Of a stretch of DNA of 64,000 bases, positions 5,640 through 53,520 are shown piece after piece; position 1 is the stretch's first letter, and the number at the start of each line of letters is the position of its first letter. The position numbers were made by a program, and so were the translations under genes. The notes under the pieces were generated by a model, which saw only the letters and a program-made list of their open reading frames with translations, was not told the DNA's origin and ran no database searches. The DNA lies in IMG/VR virus record IMGVR_UViG_3300014886_000120; one strand, given 5' to 3'. The DNA comes from a virus. Lineage: Duplodnaviria > Heunggongvirae > Uroviricota > Caudoviricetes.

Positions 5640-6648
5640 AGTATATTGACTGGCTAGTTCCAGGAATCTTGAAGTACCCCTTAATGAAAACCACTATCGA
5701 CTTTGTGCCTCTCACTGTAACCTCTCCTAGCTCCCCAAGGATTATCAGTCTATCAGCTTCCTTGAATTTTACCGGTAGATGGTTAGCCAGATATCCTACA
5801 GCCTTGTATTCCTCTCCTTCCATCTCATCGTCCAGACCAATAATGTTCTGTTTGTCTTCCCTGAATATTATGCTGTACACATCTGCCTCTATGAACACTG
5901 GCTCTCTGTTCTCTCTACCAGCTCTCTTGAAGTGTGTGAGATAAACCATCTCTAGATCATTTAGCCTATAGATCTCCTTACCACAGTTCCTTATGAACCA
6001 CTCAAGCTCCTCTGGTGAAGGCTGAACTTCAAGCTTCCTCAGTCTAGTTACTGAGCTAGCCGACAGCTCATAGTGTGGAAGCTGTCTATCCCCTGCCCTG
6101 TCTATGGCCCTGAAGCAGTACACAGTCCCAAGCTCTGGGCTTAGGCTGGTAGCAGCTTTGTCCCAAGCCTCAAGCTTCAGGAACTTTACTCTGGACTTGT
6201 CTATCTGCCTACCGGTGCTACCTATACCATAGTATGTCCTATGATCTACTCCCTCTATAGGCTTCATGTAAGTGTCCCTGTCTTCCCTGTAATCTAGCCA
6301 TGTATTTGGATCTGGATGGTACTTAGCTTGTTCCTCCTTAGGCATCCTCTTTATCTTGGCAATCATCTGTTCAGCTGTGTTCTGTAGACCACTCTCTCCT
6401 ATGAAGAAAGCTGAGTACATTATGCTGGGAGACAGTATGCTACCCTCTTCTTTCTCTAGTCTGGCCTTTAGCTTCCTATATGCTAGCTGCAGACGTTTAA
6501 TGTTGCTCTTTACCTCTGGATATTCCTCAGCTACTACAGGTAGGTATTCAAGCATTTCCTGTCTTAGCTCGTCTACACTCACACCAAACTGCTTAGCTCG
6601 TTTCTTGAGTCTCTCCATTATCTTTTCAGGTATCTCTACACTCATCAC
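5632..6648 (-). CDS. hypothetical protein (338 aa) in the replication/recombination module
   Basis: Long ORF with no recognised motif. Confidence 0.4.
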   Translation of the reverse strand: MMSVEIPEKIMERLKKRAKQFGVSVDELRQEMLEYLPVVAEEYPEVKSNIKRLQLAYRKLKARLEKEEGSILSPSIMYSAFFIGESGLQNTAEQMIAKIKRMPKEEQAKYHPDPNTWLDYREDRDTYMKPIEGVDHRTYYGIGSTGRQIDKSRVKFLKLEAWDKAATSLSPELGTVYCFRAIDRAGDRQLPHYELSASSVTRLRKLEVQPSPEELEWFIRNCGKEIYRLNDLEMVYLTHFKRAGRENREPVFIEADVYSIIFREDKQNIIGLDDEMEGEEYKAVGYLANHLPVKFKEADRLIILGELGEVTVRGTKSIVVFIKGYFKIPGTSQSIYFA

Positions 6649-18729: not shown

Positions 18730-19377
18730 TTATGTTTCCCTAAACAGCCATCTGAGCACAAAGCTGGAACCCTTCTTCCTCCCTGTAAGTAGAAACTCTA
18801 TGGCTGACTCAGCTAGAACAGATGAAGCAAACAACACTAGAGTGGTTGAAAGTGGATAGCTGCATGGATCTACATTTATTGTTTCTGGGTCTGGGGGAGG
18901 AAGATAATTACTAGCCCATTTTACCTCTCCATACTCAGCCTTCCCGTTTATACCTCCAAACAAACATGGTACATTCAGCTTGCATGCATATTCCTTCATT
19001 AGCCTTCTGGACTCATAGTTGTCAAACGTACATATGGTAAGATCTCCAGAAGACAGTACCTCTTCAACATTGCTTTCATTCACTTCTACAAAGTATGTCC
19101 TAGCTCTGGCTTTGTTTATCTGGTAAAGGATGCCAGACAGAGCTCTTACCTTGGACTGGTTAAGGTTCTCTAAAGTAAAGGCTTGGGTAGATGTGTTGTG
19201 CATCTCTACACGATCTTTGTCATACAAAACAAAGCTTGACACTCCACTTCTAGCCAGGATTACTGAAGTCCAGCTACCAAGTGCCCCACAACCAGCTATA
19301 GTAACTGTCTTGTCCCTGAGCTTACTGAACTGTCTTCCCCTATGGAGCTCCTCATGAAGGAACATTCTAGAGACCAT
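18730..19377 (-). CDS. ThiF/MoeB/E1-like adenylyltransferase
   Basis: RQ motif (HRGRQFSKL), Rossmann IAGCGALGS, LYDKDRVEMHN and FDN motifs of E1-like enzymes. 215 aa, with no CxxC zinc motifs. Confidence 0.65.
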   Translation of the reverse strand: MVSRMFLHEELHRGRQFSKLRDKTVTIAGCGALGSWTSVILARSGVSSFVLYDKDRVEMHNTSTQAFTLENLNQSKVRALSGILYQINKARARTYFVEVNESNVEEVLSSGDLTICTFDNYESRRLMKEYACKLNVPCLFGGINGKAEYGEVKWASNYLPPPDPETINVDPCSYPLSTTLVLFASSVLAESAIEFLLTGRKKGSSFVLRWLFRET

Positions 19378-22615: not shown

Positions 22616-22837
22616 TCACTGAGAGTTCATAAGTGCCCCTAGCCTGCTTCTGATGCTGTTCATCTTAGCAATGTGTGTCATGGTTCTTCTCTTGAAGAAT
22701 GAGCTGACACCTTTTAATGGTTCATGCTTCATAGACACCAAGTTTAGTAGAGTAGCTACTTCATGATCAAACCTTAGCTCTTCAATTATTGAATCGATTT
22801 CACAGAGTACATTCACTTCTCCAGTCTTATCCTCCAT
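22616..22837 (-). CDS. hypothetical protein
   Basis: 73 aa. Confidence 0.3.
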   Translation of the reverse strand: MEDKTGEVNVLCEIDSIIEELRFDHEVATLLNLVSMKHEPLKGVSSFFKRRTMTHIAKMNSIRSRLGALMNSQ

Positions 22838-22878
22838 GTGTGTTTACACCTCCATCTTATCTTAAAATAGTAGAGAGG

Positions 22879-24333
22879 TTATTTTGAAGATATCCAGTAC
22901 ATAGGTTTCTTAGTATACTCTGGCCTGGTAGGTGGGACAGTACTCATTATCTCAGCTACAACCCTGGATGGAGAGCTCTCCCCTATCAATGCAACTATCT
23001 GGTCTACAGAATACTGGTCTACCTTCTCTATTGTCACTCTCTCATAGTTTATACCAGCTCTCTCCAGTCCTCTCCTGAAGTACGAATCTCTGCCAGTATT
23101 GATTCCCAGAATTATAACCTTTGGCTTGAAGGTAAGTTTGGAGTATTCATCAACAAACCTTGGAGGATGGTTCTCAGCTTCGTCGGTTATGAGAACCAGA
23201 GTGTCACATGTATCATTGAGCATCCTCATGAGCTGCAGTCCAGCTCCCAGTGGTGTCCATCCTCCAGTCCTTAGCAGAGAGAATGCTTCCCTCCACCCGG
23301 TAGGTGAATAGTCTACTGGAACTACCTTGACTGGACTCTCTCCAACTGCATATACTGAGGGAGGCTCCTTACATGCCAGAGTCAATGCAGTAGCTAGCAT
23401 TCTTCCAGCTTCGATGGCTGGTTGCATAGAGCCAGAGACATCAATGTGTATGGACACTCTAACGTCTAGCTTGCTGGTGTTCCTGGACTTTAGTACTATG
23501 GTGTTCTCAAGAAGCTTAAACAGCTCGTATGGCACCTTAGCTGGATCAAGATAGGATAGAATGTTGAGTATCCTTGATGCACTTACCCGTTTATCACTAA
23601 GAGCAGCTTCTATCTTACCCTTTATGATGTCCATGTTAGGCTTAATAGCTCTGAACCTACCAAGCATGTTTAAGGACTGTAAAAGCTCATTTGGAGTCAT
23701 TCCCTTTATTAGAGCTCTCAGTATCTCTGGAGTCCTTACCTTGATAGTTGTCAGAGCTATGTAGGATGGAACCGGAAGCTTACTGAGTATCTCAGCTACC
23801 CTATTGGGGTCTTCCTCCTCTCTAAGCTCTCTGAAAGCTTTCCTAACGGTTCCAGTCCTCTTGAACAGCTCTTCACCTATAAGCTTGAAGTTAGGATTAG
23901 ATGATCTGTCTGTAGGAATGTGTAGGGCTCTCACAATATATAGGAGTTCCTTCTTAGAACGTAGAATGTAGCTAACAAGCCTCCTATAGCTAAGTTCAGC
24001 TAAGTAATGTTTCACAGCTGATCTAAGACTTCTGGTCTTCCTTGCATGATAGACAACTTGATAGACTAGCCTAAGTGGTAGCTTCTGGAGTAGAGCCCAT
24101 CCAATATCTCTCAGCTGGCTCTCATCAGCTTCCATGAGTGTCTTTACGAAAGCTACCTTGTGATCTCTGACAGTTCCATTCTCTATGTACCAGCTGGCAA
24201 ATCTGGAATAGAATAGAGGATTAACATCCTTGACCTGTCTATGAACCCCAAATATCTCATCCAGATTGCCATGTGGACAGTTCATGATAGCAGAGAACAT
24301 CTGGAGGTTAGCTGATGCTTGTTCGTTACTCAT
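22879..24333 (-). CDS. vWA-domain protein with helical N-terminal region, possibly Ro60/TROVE-like
   Basis: C-terminal MIDAS motif HIDVSGSM...GGWTPLGAG...LITDEAEN. About 290-aa alpha-helical N-terminal region, 484 aa total. This matches the TROVE+vWA layout. The TROVE call is an inference. Confidence 0.55.
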   Translation of the reverse strand: MSNEQASANLQMFSAIMNCPHGNLDEIFGVHRQVKDVNPLFYSRFASWYIENGTVRDHKVAFVKTLMEADESQLRDIGWALLQKLPLRLVYQVVYHARKTRSLRSAVKHYLAELSYRRLVSYILRSKKELLYIVRALHIPTDRSSNPNFKLIGEELFKRTGTVRKAFRELREEEDPNRVAEILSKLPVPSYIALTTIKVRTPEILRALIKGMTPNELLQSLNMLGRFRAIKPNMDIIKGKIEAALSDKRVSASRILNILSYLDPAKVPYELFKLLENTIVLKSRNTSKLDVRVSIHIDVSGSMQPAIEAGRMLATALTLACKEPPSVYAVGESPVKVVPVDYSPTGWREAFSLLRTGGWTPLGAGLQLMRMLNDTCDTLVLITDEAENHPPRFVDEYSKLTFKPKVIILGINTGRDSYFRRGLERAGINYERVTIEKVDQYSVDQIVALIGESSPSRVVAEIMSTVPPTRPEYTKKPMYWISSK

Positions 24334-24346
24334 AGCTAATCCCCTC

Positions 24347-24363
24347 TATATCTCTCAGATATA
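24347..24363. promoter_or_regulatory. motif 1 copy (inverted spacer)
   Basis: TATATCTCTCAGATATA, 14 nt upstream of the vWA/TROVE-like gene start. Confidence 0.45.
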
Positions 24364-24599
24364 GTCTATCCATAAACAGCTCTTGGCCTAACAAGGATAG
24401 CCTCTTCTGTCTTGTCTATACAGTACTCATTGCTGTCAAGCTCTATGTTGGCTACTTCACTAACGTAGCTAAAAATCTCCTCGTCACTAGCTTCCTTAAG
24501 GGAGCTATCCACTTTAAGAGAGGTACTCTCTCCTCTACTAACTATCCTAAGCTCTACTTCCGGCAACTTATCACTCTCCTTACATTTTATATTTTGTCT

Positions 24600-24940
24600 A
24601 TCCTTTCCATGGACAGTCTATAAAACATGGGGGATGACCAGAATGGAATTGGGCCCGCCTTGACTTGTGTGGAAGTGCCAGGAGCTATCCCTGCACCCGA
24701 ACTGCACAGTTTGTAAGCTCCTAGCTTGCCCACACCTTTAGTCTAAGCCGGGTAGTCAAGTCAGGTAAGATGCGGGACTTACGACCTGGAACGTAGACTA
24801 AGACAGGCGGGATTTAAAGTGTGAAAGTGGTGGGAGCTAATTTTGGAACCCTGATAATTGTTCAGGTTTGTAAGCTCCCACCAAGTCACACCTTGGTTTC
24901 TGACCTTTTGGGTAAGGATGGGATATTTAAGCATTTCGGA
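24600..24940. ncRNA. candidate structured ncRNA(s), strand undetermined
   Basis: ORF-free and clearly GC-richer than its surroundings. Tandem hairpins at 24680-24722 and 24831-24880 have 7-8 bp stems (AGGAGCT/AGCTCCT versus GGGAGCT/AGCTCCC) with compensatory base changes. A further 9-bp stem pairs 24737-24745 with 24794-24802. No canonical tRNA T-loop. Confidence 0.35.
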
Positions 24941-24943
24941 GCT

Positions 24944-25273
24944 CTATACACTAGCAAGACTCTCTAGGACATCTATCAACCCTGGATATCTGGCTTTTGG
25001 AGGGTTCTTTAAATATTTCCTAATTGCCTCGGTACGGGTGTCAGCCACAATCAGGGGTACACACCAGCCGTTCCCTTCATCCCCAGTTATGACAGTCTTA
25101 CCAGTCCGGATGTTTGTCCATATCCATAGACGTTCAGAAGGCTCTAATAGCTCGACAGTGAAGGTTCCATTAGGTGACTTCCATGCTGGAACCTGTTCCT
25201 CCCTAGGTATGCCAAGGTAATGCTCTAGCATTTCTTCCTCAAGTATAGGAGTACCATCAAAATATAGTCCCAT
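24944..25273 (-). CDS. hypothetical protein
   Basis: 109 aa. The palindromic motif abuts the annotated start, so the true start may be the internal Met. Confidence 0.35.
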   Translation of the reverse strand: MGLYFDGTPILEEEMLEHYLGIPREEQVPAWKSPNGTFTVELLEPSERLWIWTNIRTGKTVITGDEGNGWCVPLIVADTRTEAIRKYLKNPPKARYPGLIDVLESLASV

Positions 25274-25274
25274 C

Positions 25275-25291
25275 TATATCCCTCAGATATA
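25275..25291. promoter_or_regulatory. motif 1 variant
   Basis: TATATCCCTCAGATATA. Confidence 0.4.
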
Positions 25292-25297
25292 GTTGAG

Positions 25298-25567
25298 CTA
25301 GGCTTCAAGTATTTCTTTGAGGATAATGATCATACCTTCCTCTTGCTCCTCAGTATAGATACTTCCAGCTCTGAGAGATTGTAGTCTTTTCAGCTTTTCT
25401 ACCAGCTTCCTCTTATCCAGCATCAAGATATCCTTGTCTAAGATGTCCATGTATATCCTTTCTATCTCCTTCCTTGTATATTCCATGCCTAGTCGTTTAA
25501 TGAACTCTTCCAGAGTTATTCTAGCTACCAGAGAACCTCCATTCCTCTTTCTCCATCCATTACACAT
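25298..25567 (-). CDS. hypothetical protein
   Basis: 89 aa. Confidence 0.3.
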   Translation of the reverse strand: MCNGWRKRNGGSLVARITLEEFIKRLGMEYTRKEIERIYMDILDKDILMLDKRKLVEKLKRLQSLRAGSIYTEEQEEGMIIILKEILEA

Positions 25568-26136
25568 TCTCTAATCACCTAAGTAAGGTATCATCCCATT
25601 AAGAGGAACATGCCATGTTATAAGTTCTACATATATTCATTGTTTATCCCTACCTTTTTCATTTATCACAACAAGAGAGTTAAACTATGTCTTTCATTCT
25701 ATCTCTGTACTTCAGATAACAACCAGAGCATAGCCGGATATAATGTCTATCAAGCTTTGAATCTACCACTATATAGTTTTCAGTTAACATATCACAAAGA
25801 CTACACGGTCTAAAGCTAAGCATGTCATAGTAGAGTTCAGACTTCATAAGCTCACCGTATCATTAACATCATTCCAGGTTAATAATATATAAAGAGAGAG
25901 AAGCAATTAACACTAAGGCATAGACCTTCATAATGAAAGCACCATTAGAAGCTCGGGTATAAGGTCTTTGTATTTCATGTAACAATAATAACACAAATAA
26001 TATGACTTGAACTTCTTATAATGGTATAAAGGGCCATTACAAAAGGCACATCTATGGAGCAAGAAGACCAGTGATAATTTAGCTTTAGACAAATTATTAA
26101 GGGCCATATAATACCTACTAGAGCTCATAAAGTCCA

Positions 26137-39018: not shown

Positions 39019-39263
39019 AAGAGCTCGTTATGCTCTAGATACTTTTTCTCCCACTTCCCTCTCCTGATGCATATGTACACCTCTCTAGACACAAACTTTC
39101 TAATTGCAGCTAAGATTTGTTCTCGATATGTACGTTTAGAAAGGCCTATAACTATATTGCCCTCAGCATCCAACGTTATATACTCAAGCCTGGCAAACAC
39201 AGTTATCTCGTCCATTCTAGTCCAACCTCCTATAATGAATAGTCCTTCATGGACACTACACAT
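39015..39263 (-). CDS. hypothetical protein
   Basis: 82 aa; 4-nt overlap with the downstream gene. Confidence 0.3.
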   Translation of the reverse strand: MCSVHEGLFIIGGWTRMDEITVFARLEYITLDAEGNIVIGLSKRTYREQILAAIRKFVSREVYICIRRGKWEKKYLEHNELF

Positions 39264-40516
39264 GGAAAGTATGTAGGTATCCTACTAGGATCTCCCTTCT
39301 TGGATACTACCCATATTACGGTAAGATTTGAAGGTACCTCTCCAGGTAAAGGAAAGACACCATAAGCATCTGTAAAGTACACTAGAACTTTGGCTCTAGG
39401 CCTATTCTCCCTTATCCATCGAAATATAGGTCTAAAGTCAGTTCCTCCTCCACCTTTAAGTCTGGCAACTCTCAAATCATATTCTGAAGCTACCTTGTTA
39501 GCATCGTACAATCTAGAGTCACAGCTGAAGAGGAGTATCTCTACACTCTTGAAAGACCTTAATATTCCAAGAAGCTCACCGATCCCGTCTTTCACTTCTT
39601 CAGATGACATTGAGCCAGAAGTATCCACACAAGCTATGAGTTCAACCTTCTCTTTCTCAAGAGATGGAAAGTAGATATCAGTCACTATAGACTTCCTACT
39701 TGGTCTTCTATAAGAAAAATTGAAGGGAATACTTCTGGTCACTAAACGGGCCAGTAGCTCTCTCCATGAAAGCTTGGGCTCTACTAAATCATCTATCAGC
39801 CTCTCCATTCCAAGTGGTAGCTTGCCTATTATCTTAGCTCGTTCAAAAGCATCCTTGACTATTCTTCTCCAGTTCGGGACATGCTTCTCTGGCTCCAAGT
39901 CAGCTAGCTCCTCTGGTAGTCCGAGTTCTCTGAGTTTCTGTTTGTCTAGCTTACCATTTGGGCCTCTAGCCTGCTCAAGCTTGTCTCCAAAGATATGCCT
40001 ATCCAAGCTACCTTGTCTACAGATTACCCCGTCCTTAGACACACGTGGGATGGTACCTCTGAACGGACACTTACTACAGTCCAGTGTACACATTCTGGCA
40101 GAACGAAGTGGATCATCAGGTAGCTTGTCATATATCTCTTCCCATGCCATGCCCTTCCATCTCTCGTCTATTAGAGCTCCTCTAGGAAGAACAAACTCTC
40201 TTCTGATAATCAAGTTGAGAGCTAAGTCCATGGCAATGTTAGCCTTATATGGGTCTCGTTTACCCAGTCTCTCTAGATGCCTAAGCATGACATGTCCAAC
40301 TTCATGGGCTAGTACCCCTTTGAGCTCTTCTATGCTCAGCCTCTCTACAAACTCTTCTGAATAATAGACAGTTCCAAGATGGTTCACTCCCATAGTAGGG
40401 AGAAACGTACACTTGACAAAATTAAGGTGGAGAACAAGAGTACCCCAGAAAGGCTGTCTAGACAATAGCTGTATCCTAGCTTTTGATATCTTCTCTTCTG
40501 GAGACAACTTAGGCAT
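39230..40516 (-). CDS. HExxH zinc-metallopeptidase-like plus vWA domain protein (MoxR partner type)
   Basis: N-terminal GVLAHEVGHVMLRH (HExxH). Central Cys cluster CTLDCSKCP...C. C-terminal vWA MIDAS ACVDTSGSM. Confidence 0.6.
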   Translation of the reverse strand: MPKLSPEEKISKARIQLLSRQPFWGTLVLHLNFVKCTFLPTMGVNHLGTVYYSEEFVERLSIEELKGVLAHEVGHVMLRHLERLGKRDPYKANIAMDLALNLIIRREFVLPRGALIDERWKGMAWEEIYDKLPDDPLRSARMCTLDCSKCPFRGTIPRVSKDGVICRQGSLDRHIFGDKLEQARGPNGKLDKQKLRELGLPEELADLEPEKHVPNWRRIVKDAFERAKIIGKLPLGMERLIDDLVEPKLSWRELLARLVTRSIPFNFSYRRPSRKSIVTDIYFPSLEKEKVELIACVDTSGSMSSEEVKDGIGELLGILRSFKSVEILLFSCDSRLYDANKVASEYDLRVARLKGGGGTDFRPIFRWIRENRPRAKVLVYFTDAYGVFPLPGEVPSNLTVIWVVSKKGDPSRIPTYFPCVVSMKDYSL

Positions 40517-40533
40517 CTACACTACCTCCTAAG

Positions 40534-41748
40534 TCATTCACCTACAATGTCAAAGTATGGAGACAGCCTTGCAACAAATGGAGAGTACTCCTTTATCTCA
40601 AGTATGTTCCTCTTGAAGAAAGCTTCGTCAGTTGACTTAACCAGCTTGAGTAGGAAGACAGCAAACTCAGCTGTTAGTCTATTTGCAAATACGACTATGC
40701 TTCTCAGAGTCTCTCTCGTCTTGTGATGAATGAAGTAATCCACCAGGTTAGTACACAAAGTATAAAGCAAGTCCAGATTCTCTGGTATAGGCATAGTGTC
40801 TGGGTTCCTAATGAACTCCTCTACTGGAGGTAACTTTCTCCTGGCCTCTAGAAATGCCCTGAACATCTCAGCTACGTAAGTTCCCACCCTACCAGAGACA
40901 TACAGCATCACTTCCTCTTCATCGTACACTCCCTTAATGAGGTTGCTAGCTCTTTCCCATGATCTTGGAGTAGCAAAAGCTTTCTCTCTGTGTCCAGGCT
41001 TGTGGGTATACAGTGCTGAATTGTTAGTGTTGATGAAGCCTATTATCCTATGGTCTATGCCATGTTGTAGAGCCCATTCTGTCCAATCCTCTACAGAGGG
41101 AACTCCAAGCTCATACCAGCTGAACCTGTCATTGAGTGGATCTCCAAAGTCAAATGTAGGAGCTCCATCCAGAGGCCCTCTATTACCAGCTCCTATAACA
41201 ATGTACCCATCAGGTAGTGTGTAGTCTCCAAAACACCTGTCATTGATGAGCTCATAACATACTGCTTGGACAAGAGGTGGAGCCAGGTTGAACTCATCTA
41301 GGAATATAATTCCATGACCAGCATATGGCATCCAGCCAGGCTTGTTCCATTTAGTGATATAGTCTACTATCTTGACATCCTTGTAGTCATCTCTATCCAC
41401 GAACTGAGGTAATATCCTTACCGGTATCAGCTCAAATCTTCCCTTTACCTTTACCAGAGCATAATTATCCGGTAATCCCATTACTTCACCAGCATCTTTC
41501 TGGGCTATACGTTGGTCTACAAAGCAGAACTTGTCTACATGCTGGTTAGGCATCTTGGTCTCTATGAACTCAAGGCTGAGCTCTTGAGCCAGCTCCATAG
41601 CTGCATCCCTAGCTGTATAGCTCTTCCCTACACCTATAGGTCCCTCAATAAATATTGGTTCTTTAGTATAGTAAGCTCTCTTTATTATCTTCTTGAGCTG
41701 TTTATGGTTCACCTGGATGATATTGCCACTTCTTATGCGTTTACTCAT
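40534..41748 (-). CDS. MoxR-like AAA+ ATPase
   Basis: Walker A GPIGVGKS and Walker B IIFLDEFNLAP (MoxR has DEINRA); 404 aa. Sits immediately upstream of the vWA-peptidase gene. Confidence 0.6.
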   Translation of the reverse strand: MSKRIRSGNIIQVNHKQLKKIIKRAYYTKEPIFIEGPIGVGKSYTARDAAMELAQELSLEFIETKMPNQHVDKFCFVDQRIAQKDAGEVMGLPDNYALVKVKGRFELIPVRILPQFVDRDDYKDVKIVDYITKWNKPGWMPYAGHGIIFLDEFNLAPPLVQAVCYELINDRCFGDYTLPDGYIVIGAGNRGPLDGAPTFDFGDPLNDRFSWYELGVPSVEDWTEWALQHGIDHRIIGFINTNNSALYTHKPGHREKAFATPRSWERASNLIKGVYDEEEVMLYVSGRVGTYVAEMFRAFLEARRKLPPVEEFIRNPDTMPIPENLDLLYTLCTNLVDYFIHHKTRETLRSIVVFANRLTAEFAVFLLKLVKSTDEAFFKRNILEIKEYSPFVARLSPYFDIVGE

Positions 41749-51903: not shown

Positions 51904-53520
51904 CTAGGTAAAACCCTCTATTTTCCTAGGTAACACTCCTGGCTTTCTCCTAACCTTCTTAAACATCTTGTCCTTATCTACGATCTTGATGCCATGTCTA
52001 TCTAGCTCTTCTATTATAGCTGCCTTTAGAGATAGAAGTATCCTATCAAACTCTTCACGACTAATAAGACCCTTCCTAAAGCTGTATGGTAAGCCAAAGC
52101 AATTACTTGGTCTAGAAATATCAGTAGCTTGAGAGTACCCGTCTAGCCTAAAGCCATACAGCTGCTTCCCTCTCTCTCTCCTTAGCCCAAACAGTACTAT
52201 ATCGTAAGGATGATTAAGGTACATTTCTAGCTCTTTAAGAACTATCCTGGTTATTTCTAAAGACCACTCATCTGAGAATCCAATAGACAGCTTGTAACCT
52301 TCACTAGTCGGGATACCCCAGTTACCCAAAATGTTATAATAGTGATTTCGTAGCTTGCCAGTAGCAAATGCTCTAAACAGCTTGTACTCTCTTCTTGACA
52401 ACCCACATATACGTTTGTAGTCTTCGTACTTCAATCTCCTATTGTACACTATCCGTCTATGGTTGACATAGTAATTAGCTACACCTCTGGCTATCTTCAA
52501 GACTATCCTAGCTATCTCTGGGAAGCATAGCCATGCAGATGGAGGTGTACGATACTCGAATCCCCATGGCTTAGGTTCAATAGCTGATAATCTGTTGTAT
52601 CCATGTCTAGCATGACCAGACTCACTCCTTAAAGGCTTACCTATAAAGTCATCCAACATCTTTATTAGGTTACCACTTGGGAATATACCAAAATGTATGT
52701 GTCCACCAAGAGGATCATGGTCTCCTTTGACTCCAATAATATGATATACCCTGCTAGCCTTCATCAACAAATTGTGAATGTTACGTACTAGCTGTACATG
52801 ACTCACTGAAGGTTCTGGTCTTATCTCTAGCTGGCTACCAGCTCCATCACACCCAACATCTTCATGATACCCAGGAGTGTAATCCTCAGCTCTAACTATC
52901 CTCCCACCAATGAACACTTCAAATTCTGGATCACATCCTATGGTAACCTTGACAGCCCTCTTTCTCTTCTTGACCTTAGATAATGGAACCAGACCAAAAT
53001 GCTCTAGTGAAGATAGCATAGAGCTCAAAATGTCATGCTGAGTAGCTGTATAGTCATGAGTAAAGTCAGACAAAACCAGTACCTTTAGCTTTGGACAATA
53101 CCCACCACAGACAAGTTCGTTCAATTTAAGCTTTACACAGGCTCTAGATATGAACTCTATCTGAGAAGATATTAGATCGTCCCAGCATGAACCAAGCTCG
53201 TTAGACGGAGCTGTGAAGGGGATTAACACTTCTTGCTTCATATTACAAGAGACACAGTCAAGCTGACGTAGCTCTCTTGAACATCCAGAGAATATTAAAC
53301 ATTTAGACTCGTCTGATGACGGTACTTTAGGGTCATGGTATATTATCTCTGAATGTGCTGCTACACAGCTGAAATACTTTGATAGGAGGTCAATGTAGTA
53401 GCTGCTATGTTCCATAGTCTTCAGGACGCCAGGTACTACACTTGTCCCACCAGATAGAACTATCTTGTCTGAGTTCTTACTCTCCTCTCTCCTAGGCATT
53501 TTAATCTCCTCTTCTAGCAT
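51904..53520 (-). CDS. large hypothetical protein, candidate carboxylate-amine ligase (GS-like amidoligase) or PP-loop synthetase partner of the GATase
   Basis: GCDPEFEVFIGG resembles the ExE metal-binding strand of the glutamine-synthetase fold (GPEPEFF). N-terminal VLSGGTSVV is a degenerate PP-loop-like SGG motif. 22-nt gap to the GATase gene. Confidence 0.35.
   Translation of the reverse strand: MLEEEIKMPRREESKNSDKIVLSGGTSVVPGVLKTMEHSSYYIDLLSKYFSCVAAHSEIIYHDPKVPSSDESKCLIFSGCSRELRQLDCVSCNMKQEVLIPFTAPSNELGSCWDDLISSQIEFISRACVKLKLNELVCGGYCPKLKVLVLSDFTHDYTATQHDILSSMLSSLEHFGLVPLSKVKKRKRAVKVTIGCDPEFEVFIGGRIVRAEDYTPGYHEDVGCDGAGSQLEIRPEPSVSHVQLVRNIHNLLMKASRVYHIIGVKGDHDPLGGHIHFGIFPSGNLIKMLDDFIGKPLRSESGHARHGYNRLSAIEPKPWGFEYRTPPSAWLCFPEIARIVLKIARGVANYYVNHRRIVYNRRLKYEDYKRICGLSRREYKLFRAFATGKLRNHYYNILGNWGIPTSEGYKLSIGFSDEWSLEITRIVLKELEMYLNHPYDIVLFGLRRERGKQLYGFRLDGYSQATDISRPSNCFGLPYSFRKGLISREEFDRILLSLKAAIIEELDRHGIKIVDKDKMFKKVRRKPGVLPRKIEGFT

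Follow-up and report, generated by a model that had tools for sequence, protein, structure and literature searches.

An intergenic gap of 377 nt in the tailed-virus genome segment IMGVR_UViG_3300014886_000120 (IMG/VR; the whole analyzed stretch of 64,000 nt is referred to as the window) contains two related hairpins, which are best explained as two tandem small noncoding RNAs (ncRNAs) of a new covarying family, encoded on the minus strand and probably serving as Y-RNA-like partners of a viral Ro60 protein. The gap is flanked by minus-strand open reading frames (ORFs) of 109 aa (24944–25273) and 66 aa (24366–24566), the latter followed by the gene of the putative Ro60 orthologue, a 484-aa protein (22879–24333, minus strand). 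A preliminary description, made from the window sequence alone, had proposed a structured ncRNA at 24600–24940 next to a Ro60/TROVE-like gene. Both proposals were borne out, the former by a conserved covarying family that stands beside Ro60-homologue genes in nearly all related loci and the latter by fold comparison. The structured RNA of the locus consists of two separate units of ∼75 nt, however, rather than one RNA of ∼340 nt, the spacer hairpin between the units not being conserved.

The two hairpins occupy 24819–24891 (unit B) and 24667–24735 (unit A). Covariance model R1, derived from 16 natural units at other loci, without any window sequence and with only the two helices annotated, matched unit B at 24816–24894 (60.2 bits, E 1.6e-14) and unit A at 24664–24738 (44.1 bits, E 5.2e-10), E-values that are rough because calibration was shortened. 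These two minus-strand matches were the only ones in a scan of both strands of the whole 64-kb window, with nothing further up to E = 10. By structural scan, unit B is composed on the minus strand of helix 1 (24886–24891 with 24819–24824), an internal loop (CUU/ACUU), helix 2 (24873–24883 with 24828–24838, complementary at 11/11 positions), the unpaired sequence UACAAAC (24866–24872), and an apical hairpin (24850–24866). Unit A repeats this layout on the same strand, with helix 1 at 24729–24735 and 24667–24673, helix 2 at 24716–24725 and 24677–24686, UACAAAC at 24709–24715, and an apical hairpin at 24691–24709; its complete arms (24667–24686/24716–24735) are 75% complementary. The inserts that form the tips, of 26 and 31 nt in the window, are simple hairpins. 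Minimum free energy (MFE) and centroid structures agree on an end-paired helix with an internal loop below the variable loop. Unit B has an MFE of −32.3 kcal/mol (z −5.3), and unit A on the minus strand has an MFE of −35.5 kcal/mol (z −4.75, 43% of the ensemble), as compared to −25.7 kcal/mol on the plus strand, where the canonical hairpin is not the MFE structure. The stretch 24600–24940 as a whole folds better than shuffled sequences on both strands (z −3.7 plus, z −5.2 minus).

The sequence features of the preliminary description were all recovered at the positions given there. The stems AGGAGCT (24680–24686)/AGCTCCT (24716–24722) and GGGAGCT (24832–24838)/AGCTCCC (24873–24879) are present, the A-to-G and T-to-C differences between them are compensatory, and GTTTGTAAGCTCC (loop GTTTGTA) is identical in both hairpins, at 24709 and 24866. 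These stems had been written in the plus orientation, the strand opposite to that of the RNA, and the hairpins had been located correctly but drawn too short, lacking an extra terminal helix, GTGTG/CACAC, outside the internal loop. A 9-bp stem between the units (TTTAGTCTA, 24737–24745, with TAGACTAAG, 24794–24802) also exists, with one T·G wobble; comparison gave it no support, no homologue having been found in related loci.

To define the family, contigs encoding Ro60 homologues were retrieved, the database search having given 28 homologues of the 484-aa protein. The motif was first found by nhmmer upstream of the homologues in loci L001 and L003, and 49 distinct units were eventually collected, all read on the gene strand (equivalent to the window minus strand). 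Each consists of five parts: helix 1, RUGYNN/NNRCAY, of 6 bp (6–7 bp in the window units); an internal loop of 3–5 by 4–5 nt, with CWW(G) on the 5′ side and (C)ACYU on the 3′ side; helix 2, of 9–11 bp and typically nnAGGAGCU/AGCUCCUnn; an invariant unpaired UACA (UACA(AAC)); and a variable insert of 17–152 nt. The consensus of the terminal helix is GUGUGn/nCACAC and that of the 5′ strand GGUGUGnCWWGnnAGGAGCUUACA. The 3′-strand CACUU before the terminal helix presumably resembles CACUUGACU of vertebrate Y RNAs.

Linkage of these units to Ro60 homologues was nearly complete. At least one unit was present in 21 of the 22 distinct loci of the clade of homologues with at least 41% identity, and in 14 loci a unit precedes the Ro60 start by 10–70 nt and has the same orientation. 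Arrays of four to six units are found in the closest relatives (L001, L003, L014, and L030), with 8–12 nt between units in tandem arrays, and some units are divergently oriented or lie 2–3 kb downstream of Ro60. In 523 kb of related loci, R1 produced 48 matches, all near Ro60-like genes, among them weak ones in Chloroflexota genomes. The architecture of stem plus UACA also recurs in loci of ∼30%-identity homologues (L011, which encodes the same protein as L010; L082; and L104, a Chloroflexia metagenome-assembled genome). Homologues from the genome collection (L094–L111, ∼30% identity) were all from Chloroflexota, e.g., Thermogemmatispora carboxidivorans (L111), and several of them (L100, L104, and L111) display upstream hairpins in which the helix is followed by UACAAAC and the 3′ loop strand is GACUU. 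Because Chloroflexota loci carry such hairpins, the conserved module seems older than the viral clade. Locus L019 belongs to a contig of 2.2 Mb, has cellular neighbors (UbiA, Mrp/NUBPL), and shows the same order, unit, Ro60, and then a ThiF gene further downstream.

Both conserved helices covary across related loci. In fixed-length, stem-only extracts (alignment A3, 29 distinct rows), both partners vary in 14 of the 17 proposed pairs (120 cells), and the covariation score is 0.684, as compared to 0.237 for shuffles (0/500) and 0.07–0.18 for slid controls. RNAalifold, applied to a MAFFT alignment of natural sequences (A5), predicted both helices independently, with 11 of 15 pairs showing compensatory changes. 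Extracts A3 and alignment A5 replaced a first MAFFT alignment of stem-only sequences (A2), which had misregistered helix 1 because loop lengths differ. With the first, purely motif-based selection of units, unconstrained positions already covaried. The RNA strand is the minus strand, as fixed by four observations: the gene strand contains 25 G·U cells but one A·C cell, T-loops and complete tRNAs inside units of relatives lie on this strand, unit A folds 10 kcal/mol better there, and promoter geometry is consistent with the same direction.

The presumed protein partner was recognized through its predicted fold. An AlphaFold2 (AF2) model of the 484-aa protein, computed on the homologue alignment (predicted local distance difference test score [pLDDT] 85.7), contains 19 helices followed by an alpha/beta domain, as expected of a HEAT-repeat ring with a C-terminal vWA domain and its MIDAS (an adhesion site that depends on a metal ion). 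The C-terminal MIDAS motif is DVSGS, of which D298, S300, and S302 are invariant among homologues. In a Foldseek search, the top 13 PDB matches were all Ro60/TROVE proteins aligned over the full length (∼500 aligned columns, E 3e-11 to 1e-8), and Ro60/TROVE structures, with every solved one represented, were the sole full-length matches (9kop, 9l5y, 2nvo, 1yvr, and 9nen). The matched proteins are Ro60 of the Thermus phage phiLo, Rsr of D. radiodurans, and Xenopus and human Ro60, with template modeling (TM) scores of 0.55–0.67 and identities of 12–15%. On this model the neighbor is a structural homologue of Ro60. Its identity was seen only through fold comparison: there was no Pfam TROVE match, a weak VWA_2 hit was all that Pfam, PHROGs, and NCBIfam produced, and phmmer against PDB sequences returned noise only. 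Among deposited phage and virus genomes, tblastn detected one homologue, in an unannotated 595-kb metagenomic phage (27% identity).

Two features of Y RNAs are seen in the window units, namely adjacency to a Ro60/TROVE gene, which recurs in the related loci, and pairing of the RNA ends in a long interrupted helix, here helices 1 and 2 with their covariation, below a large variable loop. The closest known counterpart is phage phiLo, whose Ro60 is bound by two Yrl RNAs encoded upstream (PMC12135203; structures 9KOP and 9L5Y). As in the window, the phiLo genome encodes Ro60 and, immediately upstream of it, a tandem pair of Y-RNA-like genes, and Yrl1 and Yrl2 are stem-bulge-stem RNAs with paired 5′ and 3′ ends; no structure matched the window protein better than phiLo Ro60 (E 3e-11, TM 0.64–0.67), although the identity is only ∼15%. 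In contrast to the window virus and its apparently archaeal host, phiLo is a bacteriophage, and its Yrls were identified through a conserved CGAA that is absent from the window family, which has instead the invariant UACA after helix 2 and archaeal-type promoters.

The bacterial YrlA and YrlB RNAs (RF02553; PMC4201824; Wang et al., 2018, bioRxiv 10.1101/312249) likewise lie beside rsr/Ro60 and often in tandem. Such tandem Y RNAs upstream of rsr, which are cut from one precursor and have V-T-AS-D tRNA-like domains, have been described (Chen et al., 2014, PMC4201824). In YrlA and YrlB, Ro60 binds the terminal stem and the variable tip serves as an effector module, the same layout as is proposed here. 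The permuted V-T-AS-D order of YrlA is shared by tips of the window's relatives, in some of which ACCA follows the acceptor 3′ strand; unlike YrlA as described, many relatives embed a complete tRNA in canonical order with an anticodon arm. D. radiodurans Yrn1 and the metazoan Y RNAs (RF00019) resemble the window units in their long end helix with internal loop or bulge, their large variable loop, and their Ro60 partner, but have no covariance-model similarity to them; the tRNA-like arms of Yrn1 are in canonical (D…T) order, as in the tRNA-bearing units of relatives. Some relatives also recall the permuted or split pre-tRNAs that are processed through bulge-helix-bulge (BHB) motifs (Soma et al., 2007), since in their units the 3′ half (T arm, acceptor 3′ strand, and ACCA) precedes the 5′ half (acceptor 5′ strand and D arm) inside a leader-trailer helix. 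The present family differs from these in that the conserved stem contains no BHB, the window units contain no tRNA halves, and the surrounding stem shows sequence conservation and linkage to Ro60, which permuted tRNA genes do not.

Several results weigh against assigning the window units to the Y RNAs. The CGAA (GNCGAAN0–1G) signature of Ro60 binding is absent from both strands of the conserved module. The window is without an Rfam match at the gathering threshold, and neither Y_RNA (RF00019) nor YrlA (RF02553) nor a tRNA model matched 24400–25100 at E ≤ 10 with Infernal, the only Rfam match there at that threshold being a chance one to mir-8. The window units are also without the tRNA-like domain (T, acceptor-like, and D arms) that defines YrlA. 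The spacers on the proposed RNA strand are C-rich, and the spacer hairpin (24737–24802; a 9-bp stem enclosing a further hairpin, not assigned to a strand) is more stable on the plus strand (−27.1 kcal/mol, z −3.1) than on the minus strand (−18.6 kcal/mol, z −2.3). An intrinsic-terminator scan found no clear terminator after either unit, so that the units might act as part of an mRNA leader. Finally, 92% of cells pair in the A3 extracts, a percentage that is partly circular because the units had been chosen with a pairing filter. The Y-RNA-like partnership suggested by the preliminary description is supported by the Ro60 fold and the linkage of the family but not by a Y_RNA or YrlA match or by CGAA. 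For lack of an Rfam match, a CGAA motif, and a tRNA-like domain in the window units, the family is set apart from YrlA and Y_RNA, and we take it to work like a Y RNA without being a member of either.

The variable tips differ considerably among units. A short hairpin forms the tip in 24 of the 49 units, both window units included, while 23 of the 49 have a T-loop-containing insert. Some of these inserts are complete tRNAs in canonical order (37–68 bits with the Rfam tRNA model), and others are permuted, running from a V-like hairpin and a T arm through the acceptor 3′ strand (behind which ACCA is often found) and a short loop to the acceptor 5′ strand and D arm. A tRNA-like domain is present in relatives (e.g., L001, L003, L006, and L010), and at L010, an NCBI assembly encoding a 32%-identical homologue, a subthreshold YrlA match was obtained (34 bits versus a gathering score of 69, E 1.6e-5). 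One unit type shared by four relatives (L001 3623–3754, L003 1711–1840, L014 501–631, and L030 2117–2246) can assume two mutually exclusive folds. In one, the acceptor 3′ strand CAUGUCC-ACCA pairs with the 5′ strand of helix 2 to give a canonical tRNA with anticodon GCU and a short variable loop (Rfam tRNA, 38–57 bits); in the other, CAUGUCC-ACCA pairs with a downstream GGGCAUG, and the resulting acceptor stem is perfect and includes a G3:U70-like pair, in a permuted, YrlA-like arrangement. Free tRNA gene clusters were also observed directly upstream of the Y-like RNAs and Ro60 homologue at L010 (47–2161, 22 tRNAs) and L092 (159–942), with a gene for a separate vWA protein in between at L010.

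In archaeal promoters, the TATA box is centered near −26/−27. A putative promoter of this type, CGAAATGCTTAAATAT, precedes the RNA array on the minus strand (24923–24938) and comprises a B recognition element (BRE)-like CGAAATGC and the TATA heptamer TTAAATA, whose end is separated from helix 1 of unit B by 32 nt. Upstream of 22 units of other loci, a TATA heptamer (TTTATAA, TTTATAT, or TTAAATA) preceded by a purine-rich BRE ends 22–25 nt before helix 1, and a GCTTAAATA-type promoter lies 23–24 nt upstream of units in L008 and L031. Given this distance, transcription would start at or next to helix 1, and, as with Y RNAs, the terminal helix would then be formed by the primary 5′ end. Within an array the TATA box is found before the first unit only, which implies a polycistronic precursor; units B and A are probably transcribed from the single promoter at 24938–24923 and probably cut out of a longer transcript, and cotranscription with the operon is likely. 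The archaeal-type BRE/TATA promoters of the window and related loci point to an archaeal host of the virus, and a scan for sigma-70 promoters and intrinsic terminators found nothing, the outcome expected of an archaeal system.

By analogy with Y RNAs, the conserved end module may be the part on which the Ro60 ring, whose gene lies 330 nt downstream, docks, with the variable tip as an effector or cargo module. The RNAs would likely recruit or gate an RNA-processing or repair activity, or shield tRNA-like RNAs during infection. We infer Ro60 binding, processing from a precursor, and the biological role of the units from the comparisons above. A more elaborate and decidedly tentative version holds that the stem is a modular Ro60-docking scaffold with interchangeable cargo (hairpins, permuted ACCA-ending tRNA-like domains, or complete decodable tRNAs), and that the resulting ribonucleoprotein (RNP), together with a conserved gene cassette (a small beta-grasp-like protein, Ro60, two unknown proteins, and a ThiF-type E1, with RlaP and RNA ligase in relatives), would shield, repair, or selectively degrade tRNAs in conflict with host anticodon nucleases.

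The same tRNA-bearing tips could instead signify a cassette for processing or stability of tRNAs and small RNAs, in which the stem is a substrate of a host or viral endonuclease or a protective clamp that Ro60 does not bind and that lies near Ro60 only by way of viral tRNA clusters. The T-loop inserts and complete tRNAs, and the free tRNA clusters beside L092 and L010, are consistent with this explanation, which is nevertheless unlikely: both window units and 22 others retain the stem, internal loop, and UACA with only a short hairpin, no BHB is present, and linkage is to the Ro60 gene itself (14 loci) and holds also without tRNA. It is similarly doubtful that the units are solely a cis-acting 5′ leader of the mRNA of the small-ORF/Ro60 operon (e.g., an autoregulatory Ro60 site or an attenuator). 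Such a leader would account for units on the same strand directly upstream of coding genes, with a promoter upstream and no terminator-like site between, and for the Shine-Dalgarno sequence and ATG that follow helix 1 within 10–25 nt in many loci; it would not account for arrays of up to six tandem units 8–12 nt apart, for units that are divergent or 2–3 kb downstream of Ro60, or for cargo tRNAs inside units. A leader role and the proposed small RNAs are not exclusive, as the Y RNAs of M. smegmatis are processed from a single precursor (PMC4201824).

A single plus-strand RNA of ∼260–340 nt, closed by CCCGCC (24655–24660) and GGCGGG (24806–24811), is very improbable. The plus strand does fold better than shuffles and is G-rich in this region, the central hairpin is more stable on it, and TATA-like TTTTATAT and CTATAAAA occur at 24585–24625 on that strand. 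Read in this direction, however, the hairpin of unit A is not the MFE structure, the 25 G·U cells of the family would turn into A·C mismatches, and the tRNAs, T-loops, and BRE/TATA boxes of relatives would all be on the wrong strand, the gene strand carrying every one of them; nor is the closing helix or central hairpin conserved. Least credible is an element that acts as DNA (an origin of replication, an attachment site, or binding sites formed by inverted repeats). Although inverted repeats in a noncoding gap would fit a virus that uses a 19-nt palindrome widely, the arms covary so as to keep pairing with strong G·U/A·C asymmetry, the spacer between them ranges over 17–152 nt, and some units contain inserted functional tRNAs, none of which would be anticipated if duplex DNA were recognized.

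Other known RNA classes were considered for the units and rejected. For a BHB-processed permuted or split pre-tRNA, the loop strands are directly opposed rather than forming 3-nt bulges offset by 4 bp, and the window has no tRNA halves. For an archaeal H/ACA sRNA, the ACA of CACAC takes part in the pairing of helix 1, ∼22 nt away from the loop (14–16 nt needed), the would-be guide strand GUUUGUA (plus) is invariant, and there is no K-turn or GA/AG tandem; Rfam snoRNA models matched neither the window at the gathering threshold nor 24400–25100 at E ≤ 10. A C/D box sRNA would require RUGAUGA or CUGA boxes, which are missing, and a K-turn in the internal loop would require the tandem G·A, which is absent. 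The two 21-nt direct repeats that might suggest a mini-CRISPR or solitary repeat are arms of separate hairpins, 152 nt apart. The spacer hairpin is superficially tRNA-like on the plus strand (GCCGGGUAGUC…CUUACGA), and a tRNA 5′ half or att remnant was therefore considered for it; no model supports this and no homologue was found in any related locus by nhmmer or blastn, ARAGORN predicted 0 tRNA genes in the window, and neither a tRNA nor any other Rfam match covers the hairpin.

The composition of the region differs from its surroundings. The GC content of 24600–24940 is 0.481 versus a window mean of 0.41, within the top 0.7% of 340-nt windows, so the region is markedly GC-rich as first described but is not the only such stretch, 23121–23560 and 5881–6340 being higher. 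On the plus strand the GC skew reaches +0.122, which places the region in the top 0.4% of the window and is opposite in sign to that of the flanking genes; it arises from the C-richness, on the RNA strand, of the spacers that separate and flank the units. The region is free of ORFs of at least 60 aa, as had been stated in more general terms; mechanical ORFs of 48–51 aa do overlap it.

Between the RNA array and Ro60 lies the conserved 66-aa minus-strand ORF (24366–24566), which ends in RPRAVYG and has syntenic counterparts of 65 aa in L001 (3977–4174) and L003 (2090–2287). Its single-sequence AF2 model (pLDDT 86) has a bb-aa-bb topology and a predicted beta-grasp-like fold, for which Foldseek matches to GB1, PB1, and ubiquitin-like (UBL) domains were weak (E ≥ 0.036). 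Similar small ORFs starting M-x-x-L/I-K-V were observed after tRNA-bearing units in L004, L007, L008, L009, L021, L027, and L031. Further downstream in the window is a ThiF-family (E1-like) gene (18730–19377, minus strand; Pfam ThiF E 4.8e-26), and in L004, L006, L007, L008, L009, and L019 a ThiF gene likewise follows that of the Ro60 homologue at a distance of a few genes; RlaP (PF10127) and RNA ligase (PF09414) occur in some related loci. This gene content suggests a larger Ro60/RNA-repair/Ubl-like cassette.

Immediately 5′ of the Ro60 start codon lies a copy (CTATATCTCTCAGATATAG, 24346–24364, no strand assigned) of a 19-nt near-palindrome, CTATATCYCTCAGATATAG, with 21 matches in the window at ≤3 mismatches versus 0.16 expected. 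Its sites are 24346–24364, 25274–25292, and ∼18 more (e.g., 3386, 8615, 36747, 47667, 55104, 60734, and 61133). The two copies inspected (24346–24364 and 25274–25292) are intergenic and immediately 5′ of minus-strand gene starts; the element is probably a virus-specific promoter or operator motif. The minus strand of the window carries nearly all ORFs, among whose products are a family-B DNA polymerase, RadA/Rad51, an ATP-dependent DNA ligase, and a large terminase with remote relatives only. A distant blastn search found no DNA-level relatives of 22800–26000 among phages. Elsewhere in the window, a MoxR-type AAA ATPase adjoins a DUF2201 vWA/metallopeptidase protein (39230–41748, minus strand), and a phiEco32-like COOH-NH2 ligase is encoded at 51904–53520; we take these gene types to be tied to RNA-repair or conflict systems.

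Studies of Ro60 and Y RNAs have so far concerned animals, bacteria, and a few phages. TROVE/Ro60 proteins have been noted in Nidhogg viruses of Asgard archaea (bioRxiv 10.1101/2021.07.29.454249) and in Borgs (PMC11208441); a full-text literature search of partial coverage retrieved no report of a Y RNA from archaea or archaeal viruses and no partner RNA for those TROVE proteins. The present locus offers a candidate partner family with a different recognition module, lacking CGAA and having an invariant UACA, and with archaeal promoters that define the 5′ end, and its covariance model is available to annotators for an RNA class missed by Rfam. The tips of the family form a natural series from plain hairpin through permuted tRNA-like domain to whole tRNA. 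Questions thereby opened are how a divergent Ro60 ring recognizes RNA, whether Y RNAs originated from tRNAs, and how a virus benefits from a Ro60 RNP. If the stem is indeed a docking scaffold with interchangeable cargo, the archaeal world would have its first Y RNAs in these units, which would also be living intermediates in the transition from tRNA to Y RNA that has been proposed.

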